Shown: positions 11,656 through 58,439, numbered from the whole stretch's first letter. The stretch: 63,982 nt of DNA, filler included, from Collodictyon triciliatum (GCA_043381765.1; 5 parts of 5 records of this genome joined end to end with filler, not necessarily neighbours in it); one strand, 5' to 3'. The notes: generated by a model from the letters alone, not told the origin. Numbers and translations are program-made.

Positions 11656-12687
11656 CGCGCCGAATCCACTCGGGGCTATTTTCCTTTGATTCATTTCATA
11701 TTCCTTTTTGTTGTACCTATCTGAATAGTATATTCTGCATTGATAATGAGCCTATCCACCAGCAGCTAAGTAATAAGCATTTATCACATCCATACTCAAA
11801 GCATATTCTCCAAACTATATTTTCTATTGATAATTACCTGGTAGCGCAATAAATAAAAAAAAACCTTGTAATGGCGTCATCCTTCACAAGTTAAGCATGT
11901 TACATGGGATTAGACTAAAGGAAGTGATACAATAATACATAAGTCTTGTCAATTGAATTATTGAATAGCATATTCATTCATTCTTCTATTTATTCACACA
12001 CACACAATGACAGTGAAGTGTTTTATTACTAAAGGGAAAATATATGTGTTCTGATGCAAAATTAACGAAGGTGTGATAACAATGTTCTTACATCTTTGAG
12101 ACTAGAACGAACTCATATAGAATGCATAATCTTTCCCTTCGAGATATAAGTATATTCTTGGGGCTTGTATCGCGCTCAATTTTAGTTCACAAGGAACGAT
12201 GAGCCCAATCTACGATTTACCCAGCGAGCAGCTGCAATGACATAGTCAAATGAGAGCCAAGAAACATCCCTGCAGCAGCCCTTTCCTTTTCTTCTTTTTT
12301 TATATGAGGCACAAGTCCGGCGAAGGTTCAATCATTAGGCAACCTTGATGACAACCCCTAAGCACTGTGAAGGACGAGCGAACCGAAACTCGAGACAAAA
12401 AGGGCGAAAAAGAAAAAAAAGAGGAAAAAGAGAAGAAAAATAGGACAAAAATGCCTGCACCAAAAGGAATCACATGTGCAGATAATTGCCGCTTGTTCTC
12501 GAGTCTATTTATATTCTTTTCTATTTTCTCTTCAGCAACACTTATACTTCAACCCCGTCCAATCTTCTGCACAAACCTTTCCAAGCATAACAAATCCACA
12601 CGAAACATCCGCCGCACCAAGAAACAACTCCGAGCCGATCGCAAGAAACATCAGAGTCTTAGAGCCAAAGAAACCCCGCTTTGTCCT

Positions 12688-13197
12688 ATGCTGCGCTCAC
12701 TTTTTCCAGGATCCTTTTCTCTCCCATGTCAAAGTCTTGCCAGAAACACCATGCTTATGCGGTGCGGCAGTAGCAGCAAAACAAGCAAAGCAAACGCTTC
12801 TCAACAGAGTCCAAAACGTGAGGCAACGCCTTTGACACCAGCAGATATTGCACAGCTCAAAGGCGAAGTACAAGCAAAGGCTGCCGAACTCAGCATCCCG
12901 TGTTTGGGATTTACAACCGGTGCAGCAGTGGATGCAGATACTTTGGCCCACTTTCGAGAATGGCTAAGCAAAGGGTATCATGGAAATATGCGCTTTCTTG
13001 AGAGACCCGACCGGCTCGCTCGTCGTGAAAACCCAGACCTGATTCTGCCCAACGTGCGCTCGGCAATCCTTTTTCTTCTACCGTACTTGCCCGGCCGCAA
13101 ACACTTCCCAGACGCTCAAAATGATGCACGAAATGGTGCGGTATCATCCTATGCTTGGGGCCGCGACTATCACGACATTCTCGGGGATAAACTCCAG
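12688..13197 (+). CDS. queG: Epoxyqueuosine reductase QueG-like protein, first exon, with putative mitochondrial targeting peptide (truncated by contig end)
   Basis: FREWLSKGYHGNMRFLER...RENPDLILPNVRSAI...GAVSSYAWGRDYHDILGDKL matches the QueG N-terminal motifs (WLxxGYHGxMxY/F; SxYAxGRDYH). N-terminus MLRSLFPGSFSLPCQSLARNTMLMR is Arg/Ser-rich with no acidic residues. GT donor at 13198. Confidence 0.85.
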
Positions 13198-13425
13198 GTA
13201 AATCACATGGCCTATTTCGTGCTATGAAATAGTAAACATTGATTGTTGGAACATGCGCGTGGCTAATGTTAGATTATATTATGTTAAGTTAGGTTTTTAT
13301 AATATTTTATAACACGATTTGATTTGATTTGATATGATTTGATTTGATTTGATTTGATTTGATTTGATTTGATTTGATTTGATTTGATTTGATTTGATTT
13401 GATTTGATTTGATTTGAATTGATTT

Positions 13426-13525
13426 NNNNNNNNNNNNNNNNNNNNNNNNNNNNNNNNNNNNNNNNNNNNTTAATTAATTAANNNNNNNNNNNNNNNNNNN
13501 NNNNNNNNNNNNNNNNNNNNNNNNN
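13426..13525. other. Artificial contig spacer
   Basis: N44-TTAATTAATTAA-N44 (stops in all six frames). Confidence 0.98.
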
Positions 13526-13682
13526 TTATCATTTTCTATATCATTTTCTTTATCATTTTCTATATCATTTTCTTTATCATTTTCTTTATCATTTTCTTTA
13601 TCATTTTCTTTATCATTTTCTTTATCATTTTCTTTATCATTTTCTTTATCATTTTCTTTATCATTTTCTTTATCATTTTCTT
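13526..13682. repeat. 12-bp tandem repeat (TTATCATTTTCT)n
   Basis: Direct reading, at the contig start. Confidence 0.9.
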
Positions 13683-13775
13683 TTTCAACAACGTGATTAG
13701 TCAGGGAGAGTGATGGGCACATCATGTAAAATGCATATTTGGGATACACCACTAATGTCAGAGCTGTAGTCTTAC

Positions 13776-16552
13776 CGAACAGCAGTCTCAGAACCGTGTT
13801 CCTTGAAGTCTACAAACTTCATGACTTCGGCGCAAATGAAGCTTAAGTAAATCCACCACAACGTAAGGAATGGATCGAGTGATATATTGAGGAACAAAAA
13901 GGTAAATTTAAAACAGTAATTAGATGTCATAGTAACCCAAACGAAGCAAATATATCCTTTCATGATAATGATTGATACAAATGATAACTTCAATTTGAGT
14001 TTCATCCTGAAATGTTAGTCTGTGTACTTACCCCTTTTCAAAGTCAGAGTGAATGGTACCGGCAGCCTGAGGAGCTTTGGTGCCACCCTGACCAAATTTA
14101 ACCATTCATTACAATGGATTCTCAATATGTATCATACGTATTAGAACTCAAGTTCGTACACAGATGGAGATGAAGATTTAAATATGTATGTTGTGGTAGA
14201 CGCATAATGACAATAAAATATGGTTATCTTATCCATAATAGGTTTACAGAAAAATAAAGAAAATAATATTGATTTATGGTATGTGCCCAAGATACAAATG
14301 ACAGCATAAATGCAACTTCTTACAGAGATTGTCCAGCACTTGACTTCGTCTTCTCCAGCAGTGAAGAAGTGAATCTAACAAAGATTCCATATTAGTAGTG
14401 CGTTGAGACTATGGCCAAATACAAACAATATGGTGTATTGTCATGGATATGTGATATTTACAAGTCGGAGCGAGTGGTAACCAGTCGTGATGATTTTGGA
14501 GAGGGCGCTGTTCACAGACTTAGTTTCGCAGTAGGCTTTACGGGCGGCATCGTCAGGGAGAGACATGAGCTTTAGGTCATTATTAATATTAACAAAACGG
14601 TGACAAATATTCAATCGATGCCAGCAAATTTGCTGAGAATGTTTATATTGTGTTTGTTTTGTTTCTTTTAAAAAAAAAATAGTAACGTAATATGGTCATT
14701 GGGTAAGCTATTACATGGGATTCAAGTGCACCGCTGAAAGGAATCAGGATTTCGCCTCCAGACTTCTCATCGATCCACGCCTTAATCTTTGGCAACCTTG
14801 AATGTGCACGGATGCGAATCAACCATATGAACAAATGCACATAAAGGTTTCTGCCGTGCAGAAAAACTGGGAATACTGTGATAAGAGTGTATATATAGAG
14901 AGAGAGTGCAAATTTGATCGCACGCGAAGAATGATACCATTTATTCTTCTTTCGGGCATAGTCTTCCTCAGAGAGATTAACCAGGAAAATCACTGGCTTT
15001 GCTGTAAGCAACTGGTGCGGGTTGATGAACTCAGCCTGGAGCAATCATTTATTGTTTGTGTGAATAGTAGTCATCTGAAAAAATATTAAATATTAAAAAT
15101 TGGAATGGTGATATTGAATTCAATAAAGGAAAATTTTTTGGAAAAGAAACAGAAATAGAAATAGGGGTTTTGGATAAGTATTTTATGGCTTTATTAAAGC
15201 GTAAGCCAAACAATTTAACATATAATGATGTGTCAGTCCCATACCTCGGCAGCCTTCCAGTCACCAAAGCGGACCTGCTTGCCTTCTTTGACCCACTCGT
15301 ATACTCTCTTTAGTGCTTCCTAATTAAAAAAAAAAGTGGGCGAATACTTTAAGAAATACATAAGGCTGGGATTATTGTGGTAAATAGTCCTTATAATATG
15401 TGCAATTCTTGAGAATCTTGCATAATGCTTATCATAAACTCACATATTCTGCCTTCTTGGATTTATCAACTCTTTGCACGTGTTTTTCAAGAGTATCGAC
15501 CAGCTAATAAATAAATGGATCAGCTCGCCTTCAAGCAACTATACTTAAATATAGGGACAAAGTATTCCATAATAGGAAAAGGATTGTAACTATTTTAAAC
15601 AGACTTTTTGAAGCAACTCGAGGTCCTTCAACCGCAACTCCTCACAAATGATTTCCAAGTCGCGGATTCTATGTGTATTAAAAAAATTACATAATAGTTG
15701 ACAGTTTTCTTCGGCATAAAGTGATATGTAGTTTCGTGTTATAAATATGGGGAAATCTCACGGATTGACATCTCCTTCCACATGAACAACATCCTCGTGA
15801 TCGAAGGCGCCTGTAAGAGTTAATGCCCACGGTTAGATCAAGGAGTTGAGGAGTAAAAGAAGGTATCCCAATATTCAGGACCATTTTTTCCCTTTATTCG
15901 ATTCAAAACATTATTCAGAACAATGAAATATTCAGAACATCAATAGGCTCAATTTGGCCCGTGATGTAGTACATGTATCTTGGCCGATTAATGAGAGAAA
16001 ACTCACGAACGACATGGAAAATGGCATCCACGGCGCGGATGTGAGACAAGAATGCATTGCCTAAGCCTTGGCCTTCTGAGGCTCCTCGTACAAGACCAGC
16101 AATGTCAGTCACCTATTGTTGTTAAACGAGAGTTGAAGCCAAGAGGGCAATAAGGTTTTACACAAAATATCGAAAGGAAGACTTGCTTAATAAATGAATT
16201 GAGTACGAGTTGGATGCGTGTATGTGTATTCGTTCTTTCTTTATGTTCTGGTACGTGTGCAAAGAAAGTATTGAAAAGTCGAGGATATGGTGCTTTTTTG
16301 TCATACGTGCAAAAACCCAGGCACTTGACTTCCTGGCTTGTGGAAGGTGCAAAGCCAGTCGAAGCGCTCATCAGGCACAGGAATGCGACGTGGATATTGG
16401 CAATAAGAAAAAATTAAAAATGTTTCTCGTAACTCTGTCTATATGATAAAGTGAAAAGTAACAGGCTTTAGGACACAGTCTGACAAACGCATAAGACACA
16501 AACGAAAGTGCCTCTGGATCAATCCGCTCCAAGAAAAAAAATATATTTACAC

Positions 16553-16629
<77 letters not shown>

Positions 16630-16831
16630 AAGGATGAGTATTAAAACACTTATTGATGTTTGGGTCGATCGTGCAGAAAGGATAGTTTTCCGCAGGGACA
16701 TCAAGCTTAGAAAGCGTGTTGAAGAAGGTACTTTTCCCGACATTTGGCAATCCGACGATGCCTATCTTGAGCTGTCCACTCACACGGCCCAGCATAATTC
16801 GCTCTTCTTTTTTCTCAGCTTTGGGAGGCAT
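13776..16831 (-). CDS. OLA1: Obg-like ATPase OLA1/YchF, at least 13 exons, 3' truncated
   Basis: Motifs [102 protein letters not shown], reconstructed by manual splicing. Confidence 0.96.
16390..16653 (-). other. AT-AC intron with U2-like donor in OLA1
   Basis: Donor ATAAGTGT, acceptor ATATCCAC. Splicing restores [14 protein letters not shown]. No in-frame GT-AG solution was found nearby. Confidence 0.8.
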
Positions 16832-17029
16832 TTGTGTGTTCTTTGGGACTGATCAACGAGTTGTTGCACAAAGAACAAGAAAAAGAACAAGAAAAAGAAC
16901 AAGAGAACATAAGGTCAGAATGTATGACTGAACGAAAAAAATAAAGGTAAAAAATAATGAGTTTGTACAGAAACTTAGACTGCTTCAACTATTATGATAT
17001 TGAGTACGAGTTTAAGTGGGTTGTCAAAG

Positions 17030-17222
17030 TCTTTTTGTGTTTTTGTTTCTTTGTTCTTTTTGTTTGTTTCTTTGTTCTTTTTGTTTGTTTCTTTGTTTCT
17101 TTGTTTCTTTGTTTCTTTGTTTCTTTGTTTCTTTGTTTCTTTGTTTCTTTGTTTCTTTGTTTCTTTGTTTCTTTGTTTCTTTGTTGGTTGGTTGGTTGGT
17201 TGGTTGGTTGGTTGGTTGGTTT
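17030..17222. repeat. (TTTCTTTG)n/(TTGG)n microsatellite
   Basis: Direct reading. Confidence 0.9.
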
Positions 17223-17929
17223 TGGAAAGTAGGAAATTCTTGTGCGCCTTTCATGACAGAGAGGGAAGGGAGGATAGGAGCAGAAGGAAATCTATGAAAG
17301 TGCGGGGGGCGCAGCCAACCTGAAGTTGTAAGGCTCGATTGTTGTCTCCGGTCGTAAGTTGCAGGATGTGTGATTCCGGAGCAGAGGGCGCCGAAGACTT
17401 GAACGGATCAAGAGCTTCCGATCCTGTGTGGTCAACTTTCATCCAAATTCGGATATTATAATATAATAGTATTATATCTCTCATTATATTGATAATGAAT
17501 CATATAAGAGTAGAAAATTAATATGTATCAATATATATATTATATAATATTAAGAATAATGTTTACGAGTTAAATTTAAGATTTTGAATATTTGAATTTT
17601 ACTGAAGGTATATTAAGTGCAAACACATATACCGTCTCGTTTTACCAGAAAAGTTGGTATTAATTTCATTCGATGAGCACTGCTATCGATACCAGCACGA
17701 GAACCCTGAGCAGCCATAACCTCCGGCCCAAAACTGCTTCGAGAGATCGAAACCAGAAATCCACCTACCCCCATTGGGACAGCAACGAGACAACACCCAC
17801 CCACCGTTTTTCCCAGCTCTGAGTCTACCCACAGAAAACCAGCATCCAATCTCGCCCCGCCTAAACTAACTCTTGCCACGTACCCTTAGGCTCCCTTCTG
17901 CACTAGACCCACCAAAGCCCGATCACCCT

Positions 17930-18822
17930 ATGGTACGAGTCTATTCATCCCAGATCTCATCCCGCAGCTAGCTACGCCTCTGTCGGCCTTCATTACCCTA
18001 CTTCTCTTCAACTCATCACGTAACCCACAGGCTGCCCAGGAACCAGAGTTCAAGCTTGTCCTTGTCGGCGACGGAGGCGTCGGAAAGACCACTTTCGTCA
18101 CCCGCCACATCACTGGAGAGTTCGAGAAGAAATACGAAGGTTGTGAATAGAGCCACTTGCCAAGCTTCCCCATCGGGACCCCTGTTCCTTTCTCGCTAGC
18201 CCTGCCACTTTTTCAGACTCCTTTTTCGTCTCTGGGCATCCTTTCATTTTCGACACCGCTTTACTAAATGTGATTCGCCCATTTGTCTTCAGCCACTGTC
18301 GGTGTGGAGGTCCGCAAGCTGCGCTTCTTCACAAACCGCGGAGCGCTCGCCTTCAACGTGTGGGACACAGCCGGACAGGAGAAGTTTGGCGGGCTGCGTG
18401 ACGGCTACTACATCGGCGGCCAGGCAGGCATTATCATGTTCGACGTGACCAGCCGCACCACCTACAAGAACGTCCCCAACTGGCACCGTGACCTTACGCG
18501 TGTCTGTGAGAATATCCCCATCGCGCTGGTGGGCAACAAGGTGGACGTCAAGGACCGCAAGGTCAAGGCCGGCCAGATTGTCTTCCACCGCAAGAAGAAT
18601 CTGCTCTACTTTGAAGTCTCGGCCAAGAGCAACTACCAATACGAGAAGCCGTTCCTCGGCCTCGCCCGCAAGCTGGTCGGAGACCCGGCCCTGACGCTCA
18701 CGGCCCAGCCCAGCACACTGCCCCCAGAGGTGGCCATCGACCCCGCCTACATCGCCCAGCAAGAGCAGGAGCTGCACGCCGCCGAGTCCGCCCCCCTGCC
18801 TGAAGGAGACGAGGAGTTCTAA
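17930..18822 (+). CDS. RAN: GTP-binding nuclear protein Ran (exons 17930-17932, 18031-18139, 18293-18822)
   Basis: [60 protein letters not shown] and an acidic tail PLPEGDEEF. The first coding exon is the ATG alone. Confidence 0.98.
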
Positions 18823-19468
18823 GCTGCAGGCGCGACCGGCTACTCGAAGGGACCAAAGCCCGGGGGCATGTGCAATGACCCGCCCTAATGTCACGCCTTG
18901 CCCGGCCCGTGCAATCACACTAGGATGGTAGTAGTATCCCCGTCCGCAGTCCATTCGCATAGGGTCTGGCTGGCATGTTGTCTGGCCATGTCACACTTGC
19001 GCCTCCGTCCTCAGCATGTCTCGGGACATACCATCCAATATCAGTCCCTCCCCATTTCTTCCACTACTGCGTTTTTTTTTCTTCCTCCGTCTTCGCTTTC
19101 TCTGCCACACTCTCCCTTTCGTGCCGCGCTCACCCTCGTCCTCCCAGCCTCGCTCACTCTGTCGAGCATCCAACTGCACATCCACTGTACACCTTTTGCT
19201 CTCCCGGAAGGCTCCAAAATAAACCCCGTCTCAACACCTTACTCACACACACGCCTGTCCAACGCCAGCCTATGTCGCATATCGGTTACCTAGGCGTCGG
19301 ATAGTTGCAGCGGGGTTCTTATATCGGAGCTTCGACTCCTCAGAGGGCGCGTGATGGAAACCACTTGCATCACGGCTTAGTCCACGCATCACACAGCAGG
19401 TGGGATTTTGCTGAGTGCCGCGTAGCCTGACGTCCTACACTCCCAAGATTCAGACGCGATAATCACGG

Positions 19469-21604
<2,136 letters not shown>

Positions 21605-21803
21605 TACGACCTGTCAGAGAGAAAGTTTGGTTGAATAAATTCGACCACCAAATTAGTATACCTTGATGATGATTTCGCATCATTTCTTGTACCCACTCGT
21701 CTCCACCACTTGCTTGAGAAGGACCTTTTATGGTCGTACTCTTTCATTTCACATTCATGATAGGCAGGAAAGATAAGCAGGATGTAAACATCAATCTCTT
21801 CTT

Positions 21804-21837
<34 letters not shown>

Positions 21838-22023
21838 CAAAACATTCAACAAGGTAATCAAACGTGCGTGATTTAATCGACGATGCCGGCGAATCAGTAG
21901 AGAACCAACACACAGACTCGGAGAGTTCGAGTTCATATAGCATCGGCACAAATCAAGATTGTGATGCCTGAAAAAATGTTCCTGATGACAATCGTATTCG
22001 CCATCAGTGCGGCGGGTATTGGT

Positions 22024-25000
22024 TTAGTGAGAAAAATAAAAAAGATGAGCTTCTCCATGATTTTTGCACCCGACGAAAGGGCAAGTCGGAGGGTGTCGGT
22101 ACTGCTCCCAATGTGTTTTCTTTTGGTCTCGGCAGAAGCCCCCATAGCGGCAAGCTGGAAGGAGAGCCGATGCCCCAGAAATCCCCGACACTATTTTCAT
22201 TCTATCCAGAGCGTCTTTGAAGATGGTGAAGTTGTTGACGGAGTTATGGTCATCCTTAATTGCAAAGATGATCTGTGATAAAGTACGTGTGCCTGTCTTA
22301 GTATTTTAAAATAAAGAAATAAAAGGATAAACAGGAATAAATTAAAAAAATGCAATCAAGCGAAGTACTGATACGACAATTTGACGGTATGTGCTCGTAA
22401 TCTCCTATACACTCCCAATTAAAATAAAAGGGAGGAAATTCAATTAAATAAATAATAACTCTTTTAAAGTAGTGACCAAAGGAGTGAATCACAGATGAAA
22501 ATGCCTCTGCAACTACCGTTGGTGGGTTATTGTATGCCCCGCATCCAAGGGCACCAAGAATAACCACATTGCATTCATTATGAATGCATATCTTTAGAAT
22601 AGTCTCGATTTTTTTGGACGTATCGTAAAATTCGCCAAGCCCAAACTGCCGGTTGCGTTCACTCTTGATGGCATACGCAGCAACAAAATCGCATTGGAAG
22701 ACTTCGTCCAGAAGAGGATAACCTTCGGATTCTAAGCCGCGGAATACAGTGACATCTTTTGTATACGCGCCACCGAAGGGTTCCATGGGGTAACCCTCTG
22801 ATATCATCTGAGGATTTTCACTTTCCCATGCACTATCCAGTCGAGTGCAGTAATTTGAGCGCCGAAATAAATTCTCTTCCTGGGCAGCATCCCCTTTTTT
22901 ATATCCACCTCCAGGGCTAAACTTTGAGGCCATATTTAACACAGCCACATTTTTCATCCCTCTGTTTTCCGACAATATCAACCTTGCTGCCTCTAAGCAA
23001 TCAAGATTTAGCACTTGAACGGTGTGTCGATGTGAACTCAATCCAGTGGGGAGAAAAGGGGCTTCTTTGTAAAACGTATTCCTCCCGGCTGATGGTATAA
23101 GTATGCGCTTCCCTTTTGAATTCAAAAAATGCCCATCTCGGAAATATTTGATCGTATTCAACATTACCATTACTCTCATAGGACGGACTTCTTCAAGGCT
23201 GCCCCGTGGATTTGTTGATGTTGAGGCTGCTTTTCTTTTTTCGTATATTTGGAATGCTTGCAACCATGCTTGTGGGCTCCATTTCTTGTTTCCGTGTTCC
23301 CATGTTCGAATACATTCGCATATGTGAACATATTTGCACAAAATATCAGGATTAAAGTCTTCAATAGAAAATGTTGTTTCTATTGATGGAGGTGGGACAG
23401 GCATATGATGTCCTTCTATGTAAGATTCAACAGAGTCTTTTTCACTTCGTGCTGAACCTCGTCGCACATACTTCGTTTGTTCTAGAATTAGTGAAATCGA
23501 TTATTTTTTTATTAAATCTTTTGCACAAAAGTAAGAGAAGGAAATGGCGTGTATCTGATTTTTTTCTTCCATTTGACAAATAAAAACATTCATTTTACCT
23601 AGACTTGCAAGGGTTTTTTTATTATCTGATACTGTGATGATTGTGCGCCCAATTGTTAATTTCTCGCCAGAAAGAATTGATATCATATCAGAAACATTAA
23701 AGAATATTGCCTTCACCACACGTTCAGACGAACTCTGTAATTGCTCGATGTTTATGGCCAATATATCAATATTATTAGTCCTGAAATGTGATAAAAGACC
23801 TTCGTACAATTCGATATTCGTAATTCCGTGAAAGTACAGAGATAAGGGCGCCCATTCAATCTTCAATGTATTCCAGACGTAAGGATTAGACAACAAAATT
23901 CCTTCTGATGTAAGAAAGTCACTCATTGTGATGATATGTTTCCCGTATGTATAAGAGTATCTGGCTTTAGAGGCTCTCAAAAAGGATTCGAACAGTTTGT
24001 TAGGCTCTGTGGGCTCAAAATCCAAAGATACTTGTATGTCAACACTCTTAGACTTGGATACAAAGAACAAAACCCCATCAGAGTCAAAGGACCCAACTCT
24101 AAAAACATCTCCTGTACTAAATTTCTCAACTGATACATAGAACGCATTTATAAGTGGAATAGGTGTGATAAACCTTATGTCTTTTCGATGCTTCCTTAAT
24201 CCTTCCAGTGCACGAGGTTTCAAAAGTTCATCGGAAGAAAATATGCTGATAAAATAGCTAGAGTCTGCCTGTAATCGTTTCGCCTTTGGTGATTCTGGCT
24301 TGGGTTGTGTGTTTACTCTATCTTGATTTTCCCTTTTATGGGGGTCGGCTTGATACTGATCTGTTGTAGCTGGCACCTCATTCGATGTCTTTCGTATATT
24401 AGATCTTTCACTTGGGTTTTCTATATATCCGAAAGGCTCACCAGACGCGCCTGTATTCGACCGTGGTATTATTTTGGTTGAGGAGCTGGCCGGAGGTACA
24501 TGGTTTGTATCTAGAACGGGTCTAACGGGAGGATTTTCGTCACACTCACCAACCGTTTGTGGTTTACGTTGGGAAGAGGCTGATGTTGGCCTATTTGCAG
24601 TTAAAATAGGCTGTTTCAATCTAGGAGACGGAGACAAACGCCGGGAAGGGGTTTCGCGTATTTCTTTATCCATCGCATTCTCATAAGTACTTGCATTTGC
24701 TTTGCCTATAATATCTGCACCACCGGTGAGAGCCACATCGGGGTCAGATATAATATTACCACCATAATTTGGTATCTTTGGTGAAGCTATTCGGACTGAT
24801 GAAGATTTAGAATGTTGATCAGCATGTGCTTTGGGCGCTACAGAGACTGCTGTTTTTCCTTTGTCTGATTTTGACACAATCCCGCCGTAGTATGTAGCCT
24901 GGGACGTTCTATTTGGTGAAACCGTATCTAACTCCGTATCGTAAGACTTTGGTGAGGTGGTATTCGAGTTTGAATCAACTTTTCTGAATCTGGGGACTCT

Positions 25001-26694
25001 CTCGGTAAATTCCGGAACATTACCGTCTATTTTAATGACTGACTTTGATAATATTCTATGGCTGAAAAAATGTGCATATGGAAGTTCGATTGGAGAACTT
25101 TGCCTATCGAATATGTCGATGGAATTATCAATCAAGTTTAGCGAGTGTCTGATATGTTGCTTGAGAAACAAGAGATATTCTTGAAACTTCGAACATTGCA
25201 TGAGTGTGACCTCGCGATATCTTTCAATCTACAGATTAAGATTTAGCTTCATACTACTATTGTCGAACATAACTGAGAACTACGCATTATATAATGATAT
25301 AAACAGGAAGTAAATCCCCGATTTAAAACAAAAAAACATACCTTTTCTGAAAATATTCGTTCTTCTTCGTCTATCATCATTCTTGCCTTTTGAAACTGCT
25401 TTTCTGCATCGATTTTGAGCTCCATAATGTAATTTTCAATCTACACAAGTAAAAATAATAATAATTCATTTGTTTTTTCTTTCATCAACTATACCACGGT
25501 ACAATGCGAGCAAATAAAAGGGGTAATATAATATATAGAAAGAACAAAACGAAGTGTTAAAACATACCCCTTTCATTTTTGTCTTAATATCAATATGGTG
25601 AGTAGCTGCAAATCCTTCCTTCTCTATTAGTTGAGACTTGGTCTTCTTCAGTTCTTGGAGTATTAGTTGAACTCCGTATTCATATTTTTCATGACGATGT
25701 TCACCATGTTGTGAAGTGTCTGTTTTTGCACATTCATTACACATGAAGATAATCTCCGCATGCCCATCAAGGCAAATTTGAGCAAAAGGAAGACTGTGTC
25801 TTTGACAAATGGAACTGACTGGCGCCTTTCTTGTCACTGGAAGCTCCCTTTTATATCAAATATAATTATTAAAGATATGGCATAAATTTAGAACAGAGGT
25901 TTTTTTTATTTTTTTATTCTTCCTTTCAATTTTGTGCAGGATGGTGAAGATGTTAAATTTAGAACAGAGATATTTTTTTTTCTCTAAGAGTGCTTGACAA
26001 ATAAAACCAAGGAAGTTTCAGTATTCAATATTGGTGATCATCTTTATGTGTAAAATATCACCTCATTTGAAACGGCAATATGCAAATATGAATGAAATAT
26101 ATATATATATATATATATTGGAATTAAAACATGAAAAGGGCGGTTTTACCACTATGATTATAGCTATAGTAGTTATTATCAATATATACGTGGGTGATTT
26201 CGAGAAAATAAGAAATTGGATTTTATAAATAAAAAGAAAATCAAATTACTTTGGGGGTTTTCTTTTAAAAAAAAGGAAAGAAGGTAGATTGTATTACACA
26301 ACCTTATTCTATGTTTAGTGAGCTCGGTTGTTGACCCGTGGGCAGAAAAGCATTTTTTGCAGAGCATCCCACACCCGTCCAAGCAAGATGCATCGGCGTG
26401 TGTGCCTTTGTGCTTCTCACATTTCCGCTCCAGATATGCATCTTTTTCGTAGTAGGAAGCCAACTCCAAATGAGAAGTAGACAAAGGAAGGGTAGAGACT
26501 CGGCCGCCTTCGAGCTTGAAAGCTTTATTGCACAGAAAACAGCAGGGCTCGGTTTTGCTGTCCGTGTTGGTCGGGTCAGAGAGTCCTTTGTGAAGTTGCT
26601 CAACACAGGCTGAGCAGTAGACGTGTTTGCAGGGAAGAATATGCAGTTCGTTCAGTGCCCTACCGCACCCCGGGCAGATCCACTCGCTTTCCAT
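22024..26694 (-). CDS. RING/B-box/coiled-coil (TRIM-like) protein fused to an RRM-like region, a bacterial-type PARG (DUF2263/TIGR02452) macrodomain and C-terminal PBZ-like zinc fingers
   Basis: RING CPGC...LPCKHVYCSAC...CFLC; two B-box-like CxxH...C motifs; coiled coil; PARG signature VLNMASKFSPGGGYKKGDAAQEENLFRRS plus LGALGCGAYNNPP. Last exon 22272-22024 encodes CRYGGFCRDQKKTHWEQYRHP and CPFVGCKNHGEAHLFYFSH*. Six exons are joined in frame by GT-AG introns. Confidence 0.82.
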
Positions 26695-26848
26695 CAGATC
26701 GCCTAGACTTTTTTCTTTTCTTTTTAAATCATTTGGTCAATACACTTTGTTATAATTTCCTTTCTCTTCTAGATGTCGAAATTATTGCTTTTTTTGTGTG
26801 TGCGTGTTTTTTGTTTTTTGTTTTTTGTTTTTTTTTGTTTTTGTTTTT

Positions 26849-26932
<84 letters not shown>

Positions 26933-27032
26933 NNNNNNNNNNNNNNNNNNNNNNNNNNNNNNNNNNNNNNNNNNNNTTAATTAATTAANNNNNNNNNNNN
27001 NNNNNNNNNNNNNNNNNNNNNNNNNNNNNNNN
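26933..27032. other. Artificial contig spacer
   Basis: N44-TTAATTAATTAA-N44. Confidence 0.98.
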
Positions 27033-41262: not shown

Positions 41263-44200
41263 CTAGCGAGCGAAATCATAAGGGTACCGTAATTTTACCT
41301 CATCGTAGAGTTCCAGTTTCGACAAGGCCTCAGAGATGGACAAAGTGGCTGCGTCGGATGGTTTGTCTGTGTTAGCCCAGCACGGAAGACTGGTCAGACC
41401 ACTCGCGGCCCTCTTCACGGAAACATTACCGCCAAACTCTATCACTAATTCGCTCAGATTCACGAGTGTCGTTAGCCATGCGGGCAAATCATCAACCTGA
41501 TAGCAAAATTAGTCATACAAATGATTAAATACATAAATGAAATTGAATGATGGAAGAACAGAAAGAAAGAATCATAGGATAAACCATATGCTGAATATAA
41601 AGATATGTGTCGATTTGCGATGCCAAAAAAAAAAAACTGACTTGGTTTCCGTGCAAGCGGAGACATGACAGGTCTGTCAAGACAGACAACTCTGAAGGCA
41701 ACTGTGTGATTTTGTTGTGACTGATATCCAGTTTGTAAATGAAAGACAGAGACGAGATTCCAGAGGGAATCTCGGATATCTCATTCTTGCTCACATCAAT
41801 GGCGCGCAAGCTACTTAGCCCAAGTACCTCGGTAGGCAACCACGATATGCTGTTACCGCTCAGGTATATTTGCTCCAAATTGGTCAGCCTCGATATGTCA
41901 GCAGGTATTTCAGTTAGTCCATTCCTCGCCAACGAAATATTGAACAACATAGTCAGAGATAGAACAACCTCCGGAAATGATATGAATTTGTTGTCATCGG
42001 ACTGGAGAAGTCTGATATTGGTCAATTCTGACATTGTAGACGGAAGTGAGACCAAGGAGTTACTGCACACGTTGAGCTGTTGTAGATTAGCCAAGAGCGA
42101 AATGACATCGGGCAAAGTTGTCAGCTTGTTGTACGAGATGTCTAGATCGCGGATATTTGACATTATTGTTATCTCTGAGGGTAAGCTTTCAATGGCGTTG
42201 TGGCTGAAGTCGAATCTTTCAGACTGTACCATCACATAAGCAACACTTGGGATTTCAGTGAGGCTATTGTAGAACATATCCAGGCTGTTCAGGGTTGTCA
42301 ACTGAGAATACTCCGATGGAATCTCAGATATACTGTTGTTGTTAAAGTATAGCGAATACAACTCAGAGAATGAGGAAAATTCTGGCGGCAAGTTTGAGAG
42401 CATGTTATACGATAAGTTAATGAATTTCAACCCTTTGACATTCGACAATGCTATCGGAACGGAGATGAGAGAATTTCCTTGGAAATTTATATCTATCAAG
42501 GAGGAAAGTATGGATATTGTATCAGGGATTTCAGACAACTGATTGGATGACATGTCTATTCTGGAGAGACTTGTCAATAATGAAACCTCAGAAGGTAGGC
42601 TCGTTATCTTATTCCCCTGCAGCTGAAGTTCCTTCATGTTACTGAGAGAGAAGAATTCTTGCGGTATTTGAGATATTTGATTATGGTAAAGACCAAAAAT
42701 TTGAAGCTCAGACAGCATCGAAATTTGTGCTGGTAGCACTGACACTTGGTTATCATTAAGATGGATTTCATAGAGTTGTCTGTGGACTAAGATCTGATTA
42801 GGGATTTCGGATATGTTGTTTTTACAACAGCTCAATGCCCGGATCCTTGTTAAACGCGTCAAGCCAGATGGCAAGGCACTAATTTCTTGTGATGAGATCT
42901 CGAGATATGTGCAATTCGTAATATGTTGTTCTCTGGGCTCTACGCGAGAACAGACCCTCTCAAGCTCCATCAACTCTTGACCATTTTCGAAGGCATTAAC
43001 AAGTGCGTGATGGACTTCTGCAATCCTATCAGGAGACACGCGAAGTTCATTCAAGTAGGAGAGGGCCGCCATTTCAATTGGAAGGACAGAAAGTGGATTG
43101 TTTTGAATGAAAAATATCTTCAAATGCGTCAATTTGGATATGTTAGTATCTAAGTGACCTATCATATTGTCATTCAAGTATAATTTTGAGATTTTAGTCA
43201 AGCTAAAGAGCCCAGTCCCTGTGTTCTGGATCTTGTTGTGGCTTAGGTCAATATAGCTCAAATTCACCAGCACAGATATCTCATCTGGAATAACGGATAT
43301 TTCATTCAAACTAAACTTGAGTTTTTCGAGGTTGGTCAATGATGATAATACCTCCATGGGCAAAACTGGGGCATTATTGCAGCTGAAATCCAATTCCTTT
43401 ATGTTTTGGAGTAACGACAGTCCTTGCGGGATTGAAGAGGCACTGAGAGTAGATAAGCACAAATTGGTAGACTCTATCAGCTGGCTGGTGCTAGGTGCCC
43501 ATGAACCACCTAATTCCTGCAATCCTTTGATTTGCTCGCCTGTTTTGATGGCAGGATGGGATGTATTTTGTTCCCCAGAAATGTTATTTCCATCTATGTG
43601 TAGAATGCGTAAGTTGCTCAAGAATTGGATGTCGGCTGGGAGACCAGTAAGTTGATTACTGCTGACATCAAATTCGCTCAGATTTGAGAGCATACTGATT
43701 CCCTCGGGTATCTCTGTTATTTGGTTGGAGGGAATCAAAAAGACTTGGAGGTTTGTCAAGGTATAAATCTCAGGAGGTATAACAGATATTTTGTTGGACC
43801 CGGCATTCAGTATCCTCAGATTTGTTAATGTAAGAATACTGTTGGGTATGCTTGTCAGCTCGTCGCTATTTATATCCAGTTTGAACAAGTTCACCAAGAG
43901 AGAGATTTGCTTGGGAAATTCTGGAATTTCTTTATAGAATATGCCAAGGTAGGCACAATTGATCAACGAACCTTCATACGGCTCCCAGATTGTTGCATAT
44001 CCGAGCAAGTCTTGCATCAATCCTCTGTTATTGGTGGCCTCAATGGCATATCCAGGAACTGCGTCAATAGCATTTCCGTTGATGCCGAGGTCTTTCAAAT
44101 TGGTAAGAAGAGACAACTCTTTGGGTAAGCTAGATAAACAGTTGTCCTCGATGCGAAGAACATTGAGGTTTACCAACGAGGATATCTCGGCAGGGATGTA

Positions 44201-44809
44201 GGAAATTTTATTTCCATTGGCACTGATATCAACTAGGTTGGTCATCTGAGATATCTGAGGAGGGATGAACGTGAGGGCGTTGCCGTCCATATTCAATACT
44301 TGCAGTTGTGACAATTGAAATATTGCATCCCCGAATTCTGTAATTTGATTATAATCCAGTTTAAGCACGAGTAGATCTGAAAGCAGAGAAACACCGTGGG
44401 GCACATGCGGTATACTCTTAAATGATATACTGATCCTGGTGCAGTTGATTAGCGGCTCGGACGAAGGTGCCCAGGTGTTACTCATATAAGATGTTGTCAG
44501 CTCCTCGATTTCTTCCAGTGACTCTCCTCGGCGAAATGCGTCAGTCAAGTCCTCTGGCATGTCTTCATGCCAGTCGCCTGATACTTGCAGGACATGGAGA
44601 GTAGACATTTGCTTTAGATATGCGAGCAAAAGTGGCAGCTGCCGGGCATCCACAAAGATGGCCTTGAGTTTGCTCAACCCTGTGATTGGATACAGGGTTT
44701 GTGGCAGGCTCCTTCCGCGAAAGTCTATCATGACGCACGCCTCTGCGGGCTGGTCACTTGGAGACCAAACTACATCAGCCTCCTGAAGCTCATATGTGAA
44801 TCGCTCCAT
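41263..44809 (-). CDS. Large leucine-rich-repeat protein (one ~3.2-kb exon plus a short last exon)
   Basis: More than 30 LxxLxLxxNxLxxLPxxI repeats. HGNQ|GTCAGT donor near 41641; last exon VDDLPAWLTTLVNLSEL...YDFAR*. Confidence 0.9.
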
Positions 44810-45566
44810 GGTGTGGTCGCTCGGCTTGAGGCGTTCTCGTTTGGATACTAATGCTTCCCACGCGGTGCAACGGTTCCGTACAGTCCAGGCTGGTTGGGCT
44901 AGATGACATGCATTTTCCAGTTTAAGACTAACGGGCTGACTATAGTTCGCATGTGTGTCGTGAACGCGGTCTTATACACGAGCCCAAGCCTTTACCCCAT
45001 CAACGACTGCGCGACTGTGGGTTGTGGTTTGTGTCCTTCAGGTTGATTGACTTTTGGCACATGATGGACATGAAAGGAGAAAACTTTATATACATAACAG
45101 ACTGGGCAATCAAGAAGGTACCGTATCATCTCCTGACAGTCTTATTTGGAAAAAAAGGGAGGAATGTCACACGCATGCATCTGGCGTTTGTTTGCAGGAA
45201 CACAGATACCCGCAGAGAAGGCTCCTCTGTGATATCTCCACATTTAGATATACTTAACGTGGCAACCTCTTTGACGCCACCAGCACTCCTGCACAGCCTT
45301 TCAGAGGAAAGCGGAGGGAAACGTGGATCACGTCACCCAATAAAAGGCAAGGATGGATCGGCCGGCTGAATAATCACCCACCGAGCCGGTCATGAGATTG
45401 GGAATCCGGCGGTCCGTGTAGTTGATAATCAGTGAAAAGCAAAACAACAAATGTACGATATGCTGGGCAGATGCAAGAAGATGGATTAATGAACGAACAA
45501 TAATTATAAAAAAAAGAGAGAGAGAAAAAAAAAGAATGAAAATGACCTCGGAGAATTAAGTTGCCA

Positions 45567-46750: not shown

Positions 46751-47870
46751 TTATAGTGGAGAGCAAACGCGAGTAGGAGAAGAAACTACTATGAAGACTA
46801 GCACTAGAAAGAAATCAGTGATAGCGAGCTGGTCAGGTGAACGTCCCAACTGGTTGATTGGTTGCATGGGTAGCAGGGGTTGGATATGCTGTGGGAGATA
46901 TCTTACGACACATTCCCACATCTCTCTTTGCTTGCGGTCAGAGTAGCGAAGAATGCGAGCGTGTTTCAGCAGGCTGTTCAGGAAGCTGTATTTCACGAGG
47001 CTTTCCAGCCTGGATATATTGATTTCTCGTTCGGGTGAATCATTAGAGCGAGAGAATGCACGCACACTCCACAAGGGCCACAGCATATGTCCCCTTGTGA
47101 CTGTCCAGAGTATTCTAGAGTCGTGGGTCATTTGGTATTGTGGGCCAAACAGGATATCTGACACGCTGAGACGGTTGGGAGCATAATCAAGCTCATAGAG
47201 CATCTTGTGAGTAGATTCTGTCACTTTTTGAGCAAGGGAGCACTTCACAAATGTGTGTTCGATAGAGTCATCTCCGCTATGGCACATGGTGCATTCTGGA
47301 GAGGTCGTTGCTGCATGGACTACGCGCGCACCTATCCACAGCTCTCTGTTGGAGATATCGAGAAGTTGGGCGCGGTGTTTCGGGAGTAGCTGAGGTATAC
47401 GGGCTTGCTTCCAACTTTTGACTATCGGCGGGTCTACAATGCCTATAGTTTCGGTTCATCGACCCCATCCGAAGCATGGTAGCGGATTGGCTTGAAAAGC
47501 ACTTTGTTAATGGGTCTGCTTGTATCTGACAAGATTTGGGACTATCCTCGTTCTTCCCTTAAAAAGGATTCGGTCTCCACATTTGTAACCCAACCGTCGC
47601 GTCTGTTTCGTGCAAAGAGAAATGGATCCGATCGGTATGCTTCGAGAATCACAGCGACGCGCCGGGTGGCTCGGGCAAAGAGTATTCACACACAAGCCGG
47701 ATGGCTCATATGCAGCCCACGATATCCTTGAAGCGCCAAGAACGCCGCCCCTAAACTTGTTCTGCAATCTGACATAGTGCGTTGATAAAAACATACCGTC
47801 AAGTAGCATGGCCACCAATCAGTCGTCCGAGTTTTGGCGGGAGTGTTTACGCAAGGAACTGTCCATTACA
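46751..47870 (-). mobile_element. 5'-truncated, degenerate non-LTR retrotransposon (L1/Tx1-like ORF2 C-terminus)
   Basis: CTMCHSGDDSIEHTFVKCSLAQKV (zf-RVT Cx2Cx7Hx4C) followed by ...MLWPLWSVR... Upstream frames are broken by stops and frameshifts. Confidence 0.6.
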
Positions 47871-53938: not shown

Positions 53939-54038
53939 NNNNNNNNNNNNNNNNNNNNNNNNNNNNNNNNNNNNNNNNNNNNTTAATTAATTAANNNNNN
54001 NNNNNNNNNNNNNNNNNNNNNNNNNNNNNNNNNNNNNN
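53939..54038. other. Artificial contig spacer
   Basis: N44-TTAATTAATTAA-N44. Confidence 0.98.
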
Positions 54039-54123
<85 letters not shown>

Positions 54124-55038
54124 AAAAAAAAACAAAAACAAAAAAACAAAAAAACAAAAAAAAAGCATTTTTTAGTTCATCAACCTTAATGCTTGATTAT
54201 TTGTGGTATTGTTCATGCGTCTATTACATCATACGCAATGAGCGATTATCACATCGGGTTGTGTGTCTGTTCATCCATTTGAATACACCCACAACGAAGC
54301 CAACACAAATCCAAAATAGCCTTCCAAGGAAACAAAATCAAGTCGTTGCCTCACCAGAATATATTCCTTCGGCAACAAACCCGCGATACGAAATCCGTTC
54401 ACACACCACGCGAGGAAGAAGCGAAAGAAGAGTACCATTTCTTTTCTTTGCTCTTTAATTAATTTCTCTCCTTTTTTTTTAATTACTTCTCTAATCCGCG
54501 AATGATATGGCGCTGCATTGTCGGGCAAAACAACATGAATGAAGTTAATATCCCAGCCCTCGCTTTTCATATGCTCCTCCTTTGATAGATGTTTTTCCTA
54601 TATATTATATCGCTTGGTGCGAATTGCTCGTCTATTCACGTAATAACAAAGAACAAGAAGAATTAGAAAAAGAAATGATGAAAGACATTACTATACGCCG
54701 CGCAGGGGTAGCGCTCCTTCCATCAGATGCTATTCTTTTGAAAGTCTTGGCACGATTCCAACCGCAAGAGATATCATCACCGTCACATCAGAGGTTTTCT
54801 TCCTTCCTTTCTTTATTTCTGTCTCTCCCTTTAGGCACATTTTGTATCCAGAAAAAAAAGACAGAAAAAAAAAAAAACCACGTCCCGTCAGAAACCGGGT
54901 GGGCTAACAGGCCTTCACCTTTTGTAAAGCAGGAGCAAGACAGTAAATCCCTCCAACCAGATAAGAGCCCGATAGGCCGACAGAGGCACGCCACAAGCAG
55001 ACAAAGAGACAAGACCAAAGGCCTTTGACTTTGTCCAG

Positions 55039-55387
<349 letters not shown>

Positions 55388-55781
55388 GCTATTGATTATG
55401 ATGAATCTTTCACCCATCCCGTTTTCTTCCCACTCTGACATAAAATAGGTATTCAACAACGTGACGACTGTGTGAATATATATCATAAAGCAAAGTACTG
55501 CAAAATAAATCACATATTAATTATTATTGTGTTTTTTTTTTTTTAAAAAAAAACATGGCCTCTCAACACTGATATCCCTTGCATGTGCGCACCTCCAAAC
55601 AAACGATTGAATACCGGAGTCACCTGCGATCTTATCTGCGAGATATTTTTATGATACTTGGAAACCGATGACGCAAAAGATAAAATACAATGCAACGTCA
55701 AATGCGTGGAAAACGTGCGACATTCATAAACAATCACTTCCCTGTTTTTCGACCTCTTCTTTTCTTTCTCCTCGCTTCTTC

Positions 55782-55908: not shown

Positions 55909-58063
55909 TCAAATATCCGGGGCATCTGGATTGACCACGGGCCGGTCGCCCAGAAGCGAGACCGCGCCGCCAGGATTGAGATAAAAGAAAGGATAGTACG
56001 GGCCAAGGTCGGATATGCTGCTTGGAAGAGGCTGCTTCACAATCTGGCCGTTGCGCTGGTTCACAATCATCAGCTGGAAGGCTTCCAAGTCCACGGTGAC
56101 GGTCAGGACATCTCCCGTATCGAAGCGGGCCGAGGGACAGCCGGACCATGATGTGGAGTTTGAGTAGAGCGTCCCGAGTGAGTGCCAAGAGTATGAGGCA
56201 AACAGGCTGTACCCGTTCTTGCCTTTGCATGTCTTCTGAATCACGCCCACTGCAATGCCGCCAAAGCCCCGGTTGTTGATGCGGACAGAGTATGCGTGCA
56301 GACCGCTCCAGAAGCCTTCTGTCCCAAGGACAAAGCCGTCTGCGTGACCCTCTACAGAGGCCAGTTGCATGTTCTGTGTGAGGGCGATAGTCTTTGCACA
56401 CTCCGAGATATCAAAAGACCACGAGCGTGGAGGGAAGTCTGTCAGGTCAAGAGATAGAACCGCCGGCGAGGGTGGAGGCGGGGGAGATTGAGAGGCTGGA
56501 TTGGGTTGCGACAGCTTTGCGTTGCTTGAGCCCTGTGAGGTTGTGGGGAGCGCTGCATCAGAGGACTTCCAAGAGCGTGCATCGCGGTCCGACATGGGCA
56601 AGGTGCTGTGTGTCTCTTTGTGATGAAGTACTTGCAGAAGCGAGGATATGGATTGGTCGATGGACTCAGCGACCTTGTGGAGACGTGTTTGGAAGTGTTG
56701 TACAGTCTTGTCTTCATCCGGCTCTGTTCGTGTGGTATGATGTGCGTCGATGATCTTTTGCGACTCCTTGTCGATTCCGTCCATCAGGAGCGTCAGGTGA
56801 GTGTTCATCAAGAGAAACTGGGGGTCGCTGGTGTGCTCCATGATGCCTTCTAGGGCAGTCAGGCTGCCTTGAAAGAACGATAGCTTCTCGGATACCTGTG
56901 TCTCGTCTGCCTGCCAGCCCCGCATATTGGTCCTCATTTCTCGAGAAATCTGCTCGCGCAATCCACGTCGGCGATCTTCCAGTGTCTGCATCAGCGTGCC
57001 GATACATCGGTCCAGCGCCTCCAACATCCTTGTTTCCTTGCGTTCACAAACCTGCGATTGCTCTCGTGCGTGTGCGCTGATGGAGGAGATGGGCTCAATC
57101 AACATCCTACACATGCAAATGTTGACTAAACAAAACAAAACAAAACAAAACAAAAAAGGATAATAATAACTATAATAATAAACAAAACAAAAAAAACTGA
57201 TGAGAAAAACAAATGCGTGTTTCTTCAACATCTATTTTAACACAACACAACACAATAGATAATAATATTTCTCATAGTACTTTTTTTTCTTACAATCATC
57301 ACCGATGAGTATTCACCAATAGATAGGAGGAGACAAATAGCAGACACGCCACCAAAATAGAAAAATCATTATTGACAGACCTTGTCTGTTGAATCCGATT
57401 GCTTAGCTGACTCCTTTGACTCAAAGCAGCATCAATGACTGGAACTGAGCCGTGCTGGTGCTGCTCAAGCGCACAAAACGTGCACACAAGCACACGACAC
57501 GACTGAGCCGGGCAGTAATACTTGAGCCTCTTGCCATGTGCCCTGCAGCGTAGAACGTCGCGTCGATCAGGTACGGTGCTATGCTGGATACTTTGTGCTG
57601 CAAGACTCGCGGCAGAAGAAGGCACCAGAGAAGAAACTGCGCCGCTGATTGTAAAGAAGGAGGACTGGTGCGACGCAATGGGGACCGGGACAGAGACAGG
57701 ACTCGTCTGAGTCGCAGACTGGGCCGGCAAATCAACTGCATGGTAAGGCGCCGAAAGGGCCGAAAGGGCGAGGTAGACGGGTTGATTGACGGGCAGCGCG
57801 CGCATGTCTGACTCAGCAAAGAGGCGCAAGGAATGCAGACAGAGCGGGCATTCGCGCTTGAGGGCAGGCATTTTGAGCAGGCAGGCCAGGCAGCAGATGT
57901 GAGCGCAAGGCAGAAACTTTGGGACGCGCTCGTGGATGTCAAAGGCTGCTTGGCACACGGGGCAGATGTATGGGCTCGGGAGATGGCTGATGGAGTCCTT
58001 GCGTGGGAGCGAGGCTTCTGAGGAGGATTCGCTGGGCGTGGCGGTGGTGCTTGTGCTCTGCAT
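55909..58063 (-). CDS. TRIM-like RING/B-box/coiled-coil/SPRY(B30.2) protein (exons 58063-57381, 57106-55909)
   Basis: RING CPVC...PKFLPCAHICCLAC...CPLC; B-box CRAHGKRLKYYC...CRVLVCTFCALEQH; coiled coil; SPRY-like VLGTEGFWSGLHAYSVRI...IAVGV...GDVLTVTVDLE...YYPFF. Confidence 0.88.
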
Positions 58064-58439
58064 TGATCTCTGTCGCCTATCACCTGGTTGTTGTCGGTCT
58101 AGTGGCACTTGTCAGCTTCTACTTCCACTTTTTTTTTTTGTTTTTTCTGCATTTTTTGATTTGTTTTTTTTGCATTTTTTGATTTATTTTGATCCTCGTG
58201 AGTTTGATTTGTTGGGATTCGAATTCAATGAAGTCGAGCGTCCCCAAAAATATTCGTGCGTCTAAAAATTTTCATTCATTGTCTACTTCTGGAAATCAAA
58301 TGCGGGATTCATCTTTTCACATCAAATGGACGCTCGTTCAACAATTTTTTTTACAAGTTTGTTGTCATTTTTTTTTATTTACTTTAGTCTCTTAACCTAA
58401 TTGTAACGTACTGCGGCATACCAACACCTAACCCCAACC

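Follow-up and report, generated by a model that had tools for sequence, protein, structure and literature searches.

How ubiquitin and ADP-ribose signalling influence each other is being actively investigated, with RNF146, CHFR and the DTX ligases as examples. Among the E3 ligases that bind poly(ADP-ribose) (PAR), CHFR is organized as FHA-RING-PBZ and RNF146/Iduna as WWE-RING; to our knowledge, all known cases join the ligase to a PAR reader, and none to the eraser itself. Regarding the eraser, a fusion of a bacterial-type poly(ADP-ribose) glycohydrolase (PARG) with PBZ fingers, the bactPARG-PBZ protein of the rotifer Adineta vaga, has already been published, according to the accessible part of Perina et al. 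(2014, PMC4245714, citing Slade et al. 2011). As for the tripartite motif (TRIM) proteins, constituted by RING, B-box and coiled coil (RBCC), the accessible part of Marin (2012, PMC3503706) records no subfamily outside animals other than the MATH-bearing TRIM37 type. In this work, we characterized a gene on the minus strand of a 63,982-nucleotide (nt) stretch of the Collodictyon triciliatum assembly GCA_043381765.1 (the window), located between positions 22,024 and 26,694, whose predicted product resembles each of these systems in part. On balance, the odds lean slightly toward a single protein that carries an RBCC region, a linker of ~250 amino acids (aa), a middle domain of ~220 aa, a PARG domain and PBZ fingers, and that would act as PAR reader, PAR eraser and E3 ligase.

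The predicted protein shares with the A. vaga type of bactPARG-PBZ the PARG family, an N-terminal extension preceding the core, and a pair formed by a PBZ finger and a variant finger placed right after the macrodomain. Conversely, the window protein has a putative RBCC front end and no more than two fingers, while in the rotifer bactPARG-PBZ proteins the fingers form long arrays, RanBP2 or C3H1 fingers are present and the C-terminal regions are large, with PARG identities of 30-38%. A second group of rotifer proteins, the bdelloid RING-mPARG-PBZ proteins (P0088 and P0090; also P0060 and P0093), has in common with the window protein the order N-terminal RING, microbial-type PARG (mPARG) and PBZ; however, these lack a B-box and a coiled coil directly after the RING, and belong to a separate rotifer-only clade. 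With CHFR and RNF146 the resemblance lies in the combination of a RING ligase and a PAR-binding module, which is also the proposed working principle; these proteins are not known to have a PARG or macrodomain eraser, B-boxes or a TRIM-type coiled coil, and no sequence relationship to them was detected beyond the finger motifs. Finally, the order RING, B-box 1, B-box 2, coiled coil and variable C-terminal module of the TRIM/RBCC proteins is mirrored by the RBCC-like patterns of the predicted protein, the differences being that the C-terminal module is here PARG-PBZ and the host a protist.

Domain architecture of the predicted protein

The microbial-type PARG family (PF10021/TIGR02452, formerly DUF2263) was matched at 22739-23158 with an E-value of 1.1e-22 and 81.4 bits, against a cut-off of 23.5. 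Among the solved PARGs, matches were obtained with 3SIG (E 4e-9) and with the 5ZD* entries (E 2e-8), which we take to be the Thermomonospora curvata and Deinococcus radiodurans enzymes. In these alignments the catalytic signature (Table 1) coincides with that of the solved chains, and the diphosphate-binding loop GALGCGAYNN pairs with GAWGCGVFGN of 3SIG; furthermore, the start of exon 6 (IIFAIKDDHNS...) matches the PARG C-termini of relatives. Judged from the sequence, the presence of a microbial-type PARG domain is certain and its catalytic site appears intact, with hydrolase activity predicted, so that a bacterial-type PARG with an intact GGG-x7-QEE, as claimed in the original prediction, is upheld.

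Downstream of the macrodomain, finger 1 fits the PBZ pattern, scoring below the cut-off of PF10283 (E 0.002, 18.5 bits versus 22.7) and aligning with both PBZ fingers of APLF (E 0.0016), whereas finger 2 is a variant devoid of the Y-G pair; the tandem PBZ-like fingers predicted originally are therefore better described as one PBZ finger followed by a variant. Both fingers matched the rotifer-type tandem of PBZ and variant finger in P0010 (E 4e-9 and 2e-8), and exon 6 matched the protein P0003 of the fungus Jimgerdemannia with E 6e-15 across all its 82 aa, both fingers included. The same tandem, PBZ followed by CP..C...H.F.F.H, also occurs in P0010, Jimgerdemannia P0003 and Diphylleia rotans P0095. 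In Jimgerdemannia flammicorona, both P0003 and P0004 carry PBZ-pattern fingers after the PARG (CSFGGRC...H...FYH), and P0003 also has the variant finger.

At the N-terminus, the zinc-finger patterns and the heptads follow one another with an order and spacing like those of RBCC proteins: RING at aa 7-55, B-box 1 at 92-128, B-box 2 at 145-183 and heptads at 177-275. The RING produced hits to the Pfam RING models at E 0.0018-0.01, all below cut-off (18.4 bits at best, versus 27), and its best match in PDB was the RING of TRAF6 (E 0.003), followed more weakly by TRIM5. For B-box 2, 19/30 feature hits in the ESM Atlas corresponded to PF00643 clusters, the best of them scoring 0.93 and having 179 features in common with it, while exon 2, in which it lies, had no Pfam match and no meaningful sequence match in PDB. 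The coiled coil is suggested by a crude home-made heptad count, which gave 41/72 scoring proline-free windows at aa 177-275, compared to 27 +/- 15 windows in shuffles. A single-sequence AlphaFold2 model of exon 1 was unusable (predicted local distance difference test, pLDDT, 45.9). Thus, from the claim of a RING, two B-boxes and a coiled coil, the Cys/His patterns and their order are present, but the Pfam scores are below cut-off or nil and the heptad count is crude. Neither the word search with exon 1 nor the PDB search with exon 2 revealed kinship to a recognised TRIM subfamily, and because of this we regard the protein, on sequence grounds, as TRIM-like in design and do not assign it to the TRIM family. 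Exon 2 did not match the other RBCC gene of the window either, only the RING resembling that of the latter.

Between the RBCC region and the PARG lie a low-complexity linker and a middle domain that had been described as RRM-like folds. For this description no signal was found: the middle domain gave nothing in Pfam at E <= 1 (and the open reading frames (ORFs) of exons 2, 3 and 4 had no Pfam match), no usable match in the ESM Atlas, nothing better than E 1.5 in a phmmer search against 231 relatives, and probabilities of <= 0.5% when an alignment of the window protein and P0367 was compared by hhalign with the regions preceding the PARG in six relatives; these tools are weak in such a case, and an absence is not proven by them. 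Single-sequence AlphaFold2 modelling was likewise unusable here (pLDDT 37.8). The D. rotans proteins P0001 and P0367 have a domain without family match in the same position, with a non-significant identity of 23% (E 4.8, BLASTP of exon 4 versus P0001).

A metagenome scan with the PARG exon returned the sole locus L001 (57% GC), which aligned along 53 residues preceding the PARG at 38% identity; as only this stretch was matched and no PARG is present, L001 was rejected as a relative.

Several observations weigh against a protein that combines ligase, eraser and reader. Every Pfam score of the RING and the B-boxes is below its curated cut-off, and a word search with exon 1 for longer proteins, which constitutes weak evidence, yielded 84 candidates, none with E <= 0.01. 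In the alignment with TRAF6 the RING reads CPGC in place of CPIC; the Ile/Val of CPIC-type RING motifs is a key contact for the E2, and since a Gly replaces it here, ligase activity is doubtful. The nearest named homologue, D. rotans EP00002 P039766/P039767 (P0001/P0367), with PARG domains 43-47% identical to that of the window protein, displays the same order of helical N-terminus, Ser/Pro-rich linker, middle domain and PARG, but RING, B-box and PBZ are all missing from these assembled transcripts, and only 2 Cys lie among the first 130 residues of P0367 (1,011 aa). The D. rotans transcripts may be incomplete at the 5' end, or the RBCC and PBZ ends may be specific to the lineage of the window. 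As for PAR binding, finger 1 keeps the equivalent of Y381 of APLF and has R-D where APLF has Y386-R387, the three being PAR-contact residues, and the Y386-R387 pair critical ones, according to the accessible part of PMC6264785; the same replacement is seen in fingers attached to PARG in rotifer-type (P0010) and fungal proteins. To these points are added, from the transcript side, that the joint between exons 1 and 2 was not seen in any contig of the sequencing runs X1 and X2 described below, that the contigs of both runs covering exon 1 extend unspliced for at least 250 nt into intron 1, and that the genomic contig of the gene reaches only 238 nt beyond the ATG on its 5' side, which makes an additional 5' exon possible.

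The observations on the RING would be explained if the RBCC region were a scaffold without ubiquitin transfer of its own, the protein then being an oligomeric, PAR-tethered PARG whose fingers and coiled coil dimerise it, localise it or recruit a partner E3. We regard this explanation as a serious rival, although a less likely one, at about half the weight of the combined ligase, eraser and reader. Besides the Gly and the sub-threshold Pfam scores of the RING, it is favoured by the other RBCC gene of the window, whose RING keeps CPVC...CPLC, and by PARG relatives of the same clade that lack a RING. Conversely, the RING retains its eight zinc ligands in full, the X1/X2 contigs differ from the genome in exon 1 by silent or conservative changes only, and an independent RING-mPARG combination in rotifers suggests that the pairing itself is useful.

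Gene model and transcript evidence

The stop-to-stop ORFs of the minus strand follow one another between 26736 and 22024, and joining them by introns gives a model of six exons with the ATG at 26694 and the TAA at 22026-22024, encoding 1,223 aa; start and stop correspond exactly to the placement at 22024-26694 proposed beforehand. Introns 1 to 5 measure 455, 127, 113, 117 and 187 nt, all of them are GT..AG, and the joined frame is open along 1,223 codons.

Parts of the locus were present at 95-99% identity in two small public sequencing runs (X1 and X2), whose RNA nature is only guessed: no run with the locus is on record as RNA, and the X1/X2 contigs may hold DNA or pre-mRNA. Contig cover is absent over 22826-25732 in X1 and X2, and wholly in X3, and no inference was drawn from these gaps. 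The removal of intron 5 was observed in a 655-nt contig of X1, where 22460 abuts 22272 precisely as predicted (the plus strand reading CT..AC), and in a contig of X2 with the same joint and 3 odd letters. In these two runs, taken as RNA by guess, the exon of the PARG core is thus spliced to that of the PBZ fingers. As to the prediction of one spliced ORF, the open frame, the GT..AG introns and the intron 5 joint agree with it, but at the RING end the joint was not seen.

A single transcript from RING to PARG is the best model, and we hold it to be quite likely. It is favoured because exon 2 contains a whole B-box pattern with no preceding in-frame ATG, because the phases of exons 1 and 2 match, and because exon 3 is a 99-nt exon of phase 0-0 with strong splice sites. 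The differences between contigs and genome were also considered. In intron 1 they amount to a 1-nt deletion plus 4 substitutions within 252 nt, in exon 1 to 3 substitutions within 392 nt (L34L silent, I6L and L88M conservative), and in exon 5 to one coding difference, the silent G1081G; the single gene is favoured since the deletion falls in the ORF that would result from reading through intron 1, while no difference in the coding sequence goes beyond a silent or conservative change.

The contigs that pass from exon 1 into intron 1 with no joint may derive from pre-mRNA, from contaminating DNA or from an isoform that retains intron 1. If the last were the case, the locus would yield two products, namely a RING-B-box-1 protein of 172 aa that retains intron 1 and stops at 26179, and a coiled-coil-linker-PARG-PBZ protein started downstream and similar to D. 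rotans P0367, which has a coiled-coil region at its start and no zinc fingers. We judge this improbable: the B-box pattern of exon 2 would be untranslatable without an upstream exon, its first in-frame Met lying inside the B-box 2 finger and its frame being open only if joined to exon 1, the phase of exon 1 matches, and the deletion in X1/X2 falls within the very frame that the intron-retaining product would use; in addition, the runs from which the unspliced contigs come may represent DNA or pre-mRNA.

Within intron 1, an element of ~50 nt at 25900-25954 reached a summed depth of ~1,160 in X1 and ~760 in X2. It occurs in many different contigs, on both strands and with unrelated flanks, which corresponds to a dispersed short repeat.

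Relatives and proposed function

Relatives of the PARG domain were collected by an exhaustive HMMER search (6,273) and a word-based search (93 long proteins), and 231 distinct relatives were fetched. D. rotans P0001 was the best of the 6,273 (E 1.9e-75), and no relative was more than 48% identical. The motif GGG-x6-8-QEE is kept in 218/231 relatives, and 80 have the strict PBZ motif, 77 of them belonging to the 120 long ones; mPARG-PBZ proteins are common in eukaryotes, being found in bdelloid rotifers, the fungus Jimgerdemannia and D. rotans. A RING was present in only four of the 231, all of them predicted proteins of bdelloid rotifers (P0088, P0090, P0060 and P0093). In these four, RING and PARG were confirmed by Pfam, the best RING model being PF13639, of the RING-H2 type, while the PBZ passed its cut-off in P0088 and P0090, fell short of it in P0093, and was detected by regular expression only in P0060. 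No B-box was found in 233 relatives with a regular expression that finds all three B-boxes of the window, in 93 precomputed Pfam annotations or in 14 fresh scans. Among the 93 long relatives, ubiquitin-system domains joined to mPARG were RING (4), a UBC E2 domain (1, P0082) and WWE (1, P0083).

Other mPARG fusions observed were those with the UBC E2 domain in P0082, from Rotaria, with WWE in P0083, with ADP-ribosylglycohydrolase in P0111 and others, and with Tpt1 plus NADAR in P0074.

A tree of the PARG domain was built with the window protein and 50 relatives out of the 231; the partial RING protein P0093 was among the 181 not included. The window protein was placed in a clade of 5 rows (98 in the Shimodaira-Hasegawa-like approximate likelihood ratio test, SH-aLRT), where its companions, three proteins of D. 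rotans and one fragment from a metagenome, lack a RING, and within a eukaryotic group of 32 rows (SH-aLRT 92). The RING proteins of rotifers were found deep in a rotifer-only clade of 22 rows (SH-aLRT 98). Because this clade is separate from the RING-less relatives of the window protein, the sequences indicate that the RING-PARG pairing arose at least twice.

In the literature, searched outside supplements and subscription journals, no account of a PARG linked to a RING or a TRIM was encountered, no paper joining B-box, PBZ, macrodomain and RING, and none joining the terms 'tripartite motif', 'macro domain', PARG and 'domain architecture'. The architecture had been put forward as undescribed; this holds for the form with B-boxes, absent in the 233 relatives, but not for its parts, as bactPARG with PBZ is in print and RING with mPARG (and PBZ) exists in four rotifer proteins. 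Likewise, the search for the same architecture elsewhere, which had been suggested, yielded no RBCC-PARG-PBZ relative, although mPARG-PBZ is widespread. Consequently, the gene is a variant within the eukaryotic mPARG-PBZ proteins and the PAR-coupled RING ligases, and does not constitute a new category.

For the combined protein, the following mode of action is proposed. The C-terminal fingers would dock the protein on PAR, the PARG domain would hydrolyse the polymer, and the coiled coil (~110 aa) would dimerise the protein; the RING, if competent for an E2, would ubiquitinate the PARylated target (e.g., an automodified PARP) or the protein itself. A single polypeptide could in this way read, erase and ubiquitin-mark a PAR signal, which would then be ended. 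The working principle would be similar to that of CHFR or RNF146 combined with a PARG, and a response to DNA damage or stress is the most plausible setting.

A role in innate immunity or antiviral defence, as put forward originally, in which a TRIM-like sensor would remove or mark ADP-ribosylation during infection, is not exclusive of the other readings and is proposed by analogy, since TRIMs and macrodomain/PARP proteins of animals act in antiviral defence; the fusion of mPARG to many 'conflict'-type domains in relatives (ARH, NADAR, Tpt1, WWE) agrees with it. We give it little credence: the neighbours on the same contig are the housekeeping genes of Ran and of an OLA1-like GTPase, and the known PBZ proteins, APLF and CHFR, work in DNA-damage and checkpoint pathways. 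The comparison with the animal PARP14/DTX3L modules, also made originally, is equally conjectural.

Going beyond the combined reader, eraser and candidate ligase, it is tentatively possible that this deep-branching protist of the CRuMs type harbours a true TRIM-style RBCC ligase with a PAR eraser and reader as its C-terminal 'sensor', that is, a PAR-gated E3 that trims PAR and ubiquitinates the target. If so, and together with an RBCC-SPRY gene of the same assembly, the modular TRIM design beyond the TRIM37 type would be no animal invention, and, together with the independent rotifer fusions, the coupling of ubiquitination to PAR removal would have been selected repeatedly. TRIM-like RBCC with non-MATH C-terminal modules would thereby be carried into a poorly sampled eukaryotic supergroup. 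Furthermore, a ligase, eraser and reader in a single chain would offer a compact system for the order of PAR removal versus ubiquitination, and the similar, independent fusion in rotifers adds to its value as a test system. If instead the RING is inert or the transcript split, the gene would be reduced to a usual representative of the eukaryotic mPARG-PBZ proteins, which are widespread.

Table 1. Features of the RBCC-mPARG-PBZ gene, with positions in the window
Feature	Position	Strand	Description
Exon 1	26303..26694	-	Start codon, RING and B-box 1; donor AAG/GTTGTG
C3HC4 RING finger, aa 7-55	26530..26676	-	Full Cys/His pattern, with all eight zinc ligands kept
B-box-like finger 1, aa 92-128	26311..26421	-	Cys/His pattern; Pfam zf-B_box E 0.043, 14.4 bits versus cut-off 24.1
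Exon 2	25568..25847	-	B-box 2 and start of coiled coil; acceptor AAAAG/G, donor GGG/GTATGT
B-box-like finger 2, aa 145-183	25691..25807	-	Cys/His pattern; PF00643 among ESM Atlas neighbours
Putative coiled coil, aa ~185-300	25100..25687, including introns 2 and 3	-	In exons 2, 3 and 4; heptad heuristic
Exon 3	25342..25440	-	99 nt, 33 codons, phase 0-0; acceptor TGTAG/, donor /GTATGT
Exon 4	23599..25228	-	End of coiled coil, linker and middle domain; 543 open codons, from TGTAG/ to AG/GTAAAA
Low-complexity linker, aa ~325-578	24266..25027	-	Probably disordered; 60-78% polar/Pro/Gly per 40-aa block; no Pfam family
Middle domain, ~220 aa, aa ~579-800	23600..24265	-	No family match; formerly described as RRM-like folds
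Exon 5	22460..23481	-	N-terminal extension and core of the microbial-type PARG macrodomain
PARG catalytic signature GGG-x7-QEE	22874..22912	-	GGGYKKGDAAQEE; pairs with the motif of the 3SIG and 5ZD* chains
Intron 5	22273..22459	-	187 nt, within the macrodomain
Exon 6	22024..22272	-	Last strand and helix of the macrodomain, PBZ fingers and stop codon
PBZ finger 1, aa 1182-1201	22093..22152	-	CRYGGFC-x6-H-x5-H, CRYGGFCRDQKKTHWEQYRH; fits C-x5-C-x6-H-x5-H, with [FY]-G after the first Cys
PBZ-variant finger 2, aa 1205-1223	22027..22083	-	CPFVGC-x6-H-x5-H; C-x4-C, lacking Y-G, outside the PBZ pattern
3' untranslated region (at least)	21868..22023	-	Spliced X1 contig reaches 21868

Genomic setting and additional observations

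The window consists of five pieces of 13,425, 13,407, 13,403, 13,403 and 9,944 bp, and neighbourhood across the spacers is not real. The spacers (13426-13525, 26933-27032, 40436-40535 and 53939-54038) are each composed of N44, TTAATTAATTAA and N44, and four of the five pieces start or end in simple repeats at a spacer, resembling contigs of a fragmented assembly sorted by length. The contig of the gene (13526-26932) also carries Ran and the OLA1-like GTPase. The Ran GTPase gene, at 18067-18822 on the plus strand, forms an island of 55% GC amid 36-40% GC; its exon is 85% identical to a EukProt protein of D. rotans, and at most 75% identical to the others listed (animals, fungi, red algae and haptophytes). 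A protist host, as originally assumed, is corroborated, and it is placed near the diphylleids, since Ran and the PARG protein are both nearest to D. rotans (CRuMs) among the named relatives. An animal origin, suggested by the TRIM-SPRY gene described below, was rejected because the identity of Ran to its animal counterparts is only ~70% and the contig that holds the TRIM-SPRY gene is a different one.

In a six-frame translation of the window, the motif patterns of the protein occurred only in the PARG gene, apart from the RING (and, with a relaxed pattern, the B-box) of a second RBCC gene. This second TRIM-like gene, at 55909-58111 on the minus strand of another contig, in a stretch of 52% GC, is of a more canonical kind: it encodes a RING with CPVC...CPLC, a B-box recognised by Pfam at E 1e-5, a helical region and a SPRY domain that narrowly misses its cut-off (E 1.1e-5, 26.0 bits versus 26.3), and it shares only RING similarity with the PARG gene. 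An RBCC-SPRY gene in a protist assembly is unusual against what the accessible part of Marin (2012, PMC3503706) records.

The scans of the window for Rfam families and tRNAs gave no match. Elsewhere, on other contigs, an ORF of 291 aa at 12352-13227 (plus strand) contains the DUF1730 N-terminal domain of the epoxyqueuosine reductase QueG (E 3.9e-14), typically a bacterial enzyme, and could be a transferred gene or belong to a contaminant contig. A frame of 1,148 aa at 41525-44971 (minus strand) consists almost entirely of leucine-rich repeats, and near it, at 46751-47455 (minus strand), lies an ORF with the zinc-binding domain of reverse transcriptases (zf-RVT). Finally, a trinucleotide microsatellite of ~480 bp at ~54900-55400 translates, according to the frame chosen, into poly-Y, poly-I, poly-L or poly-N.

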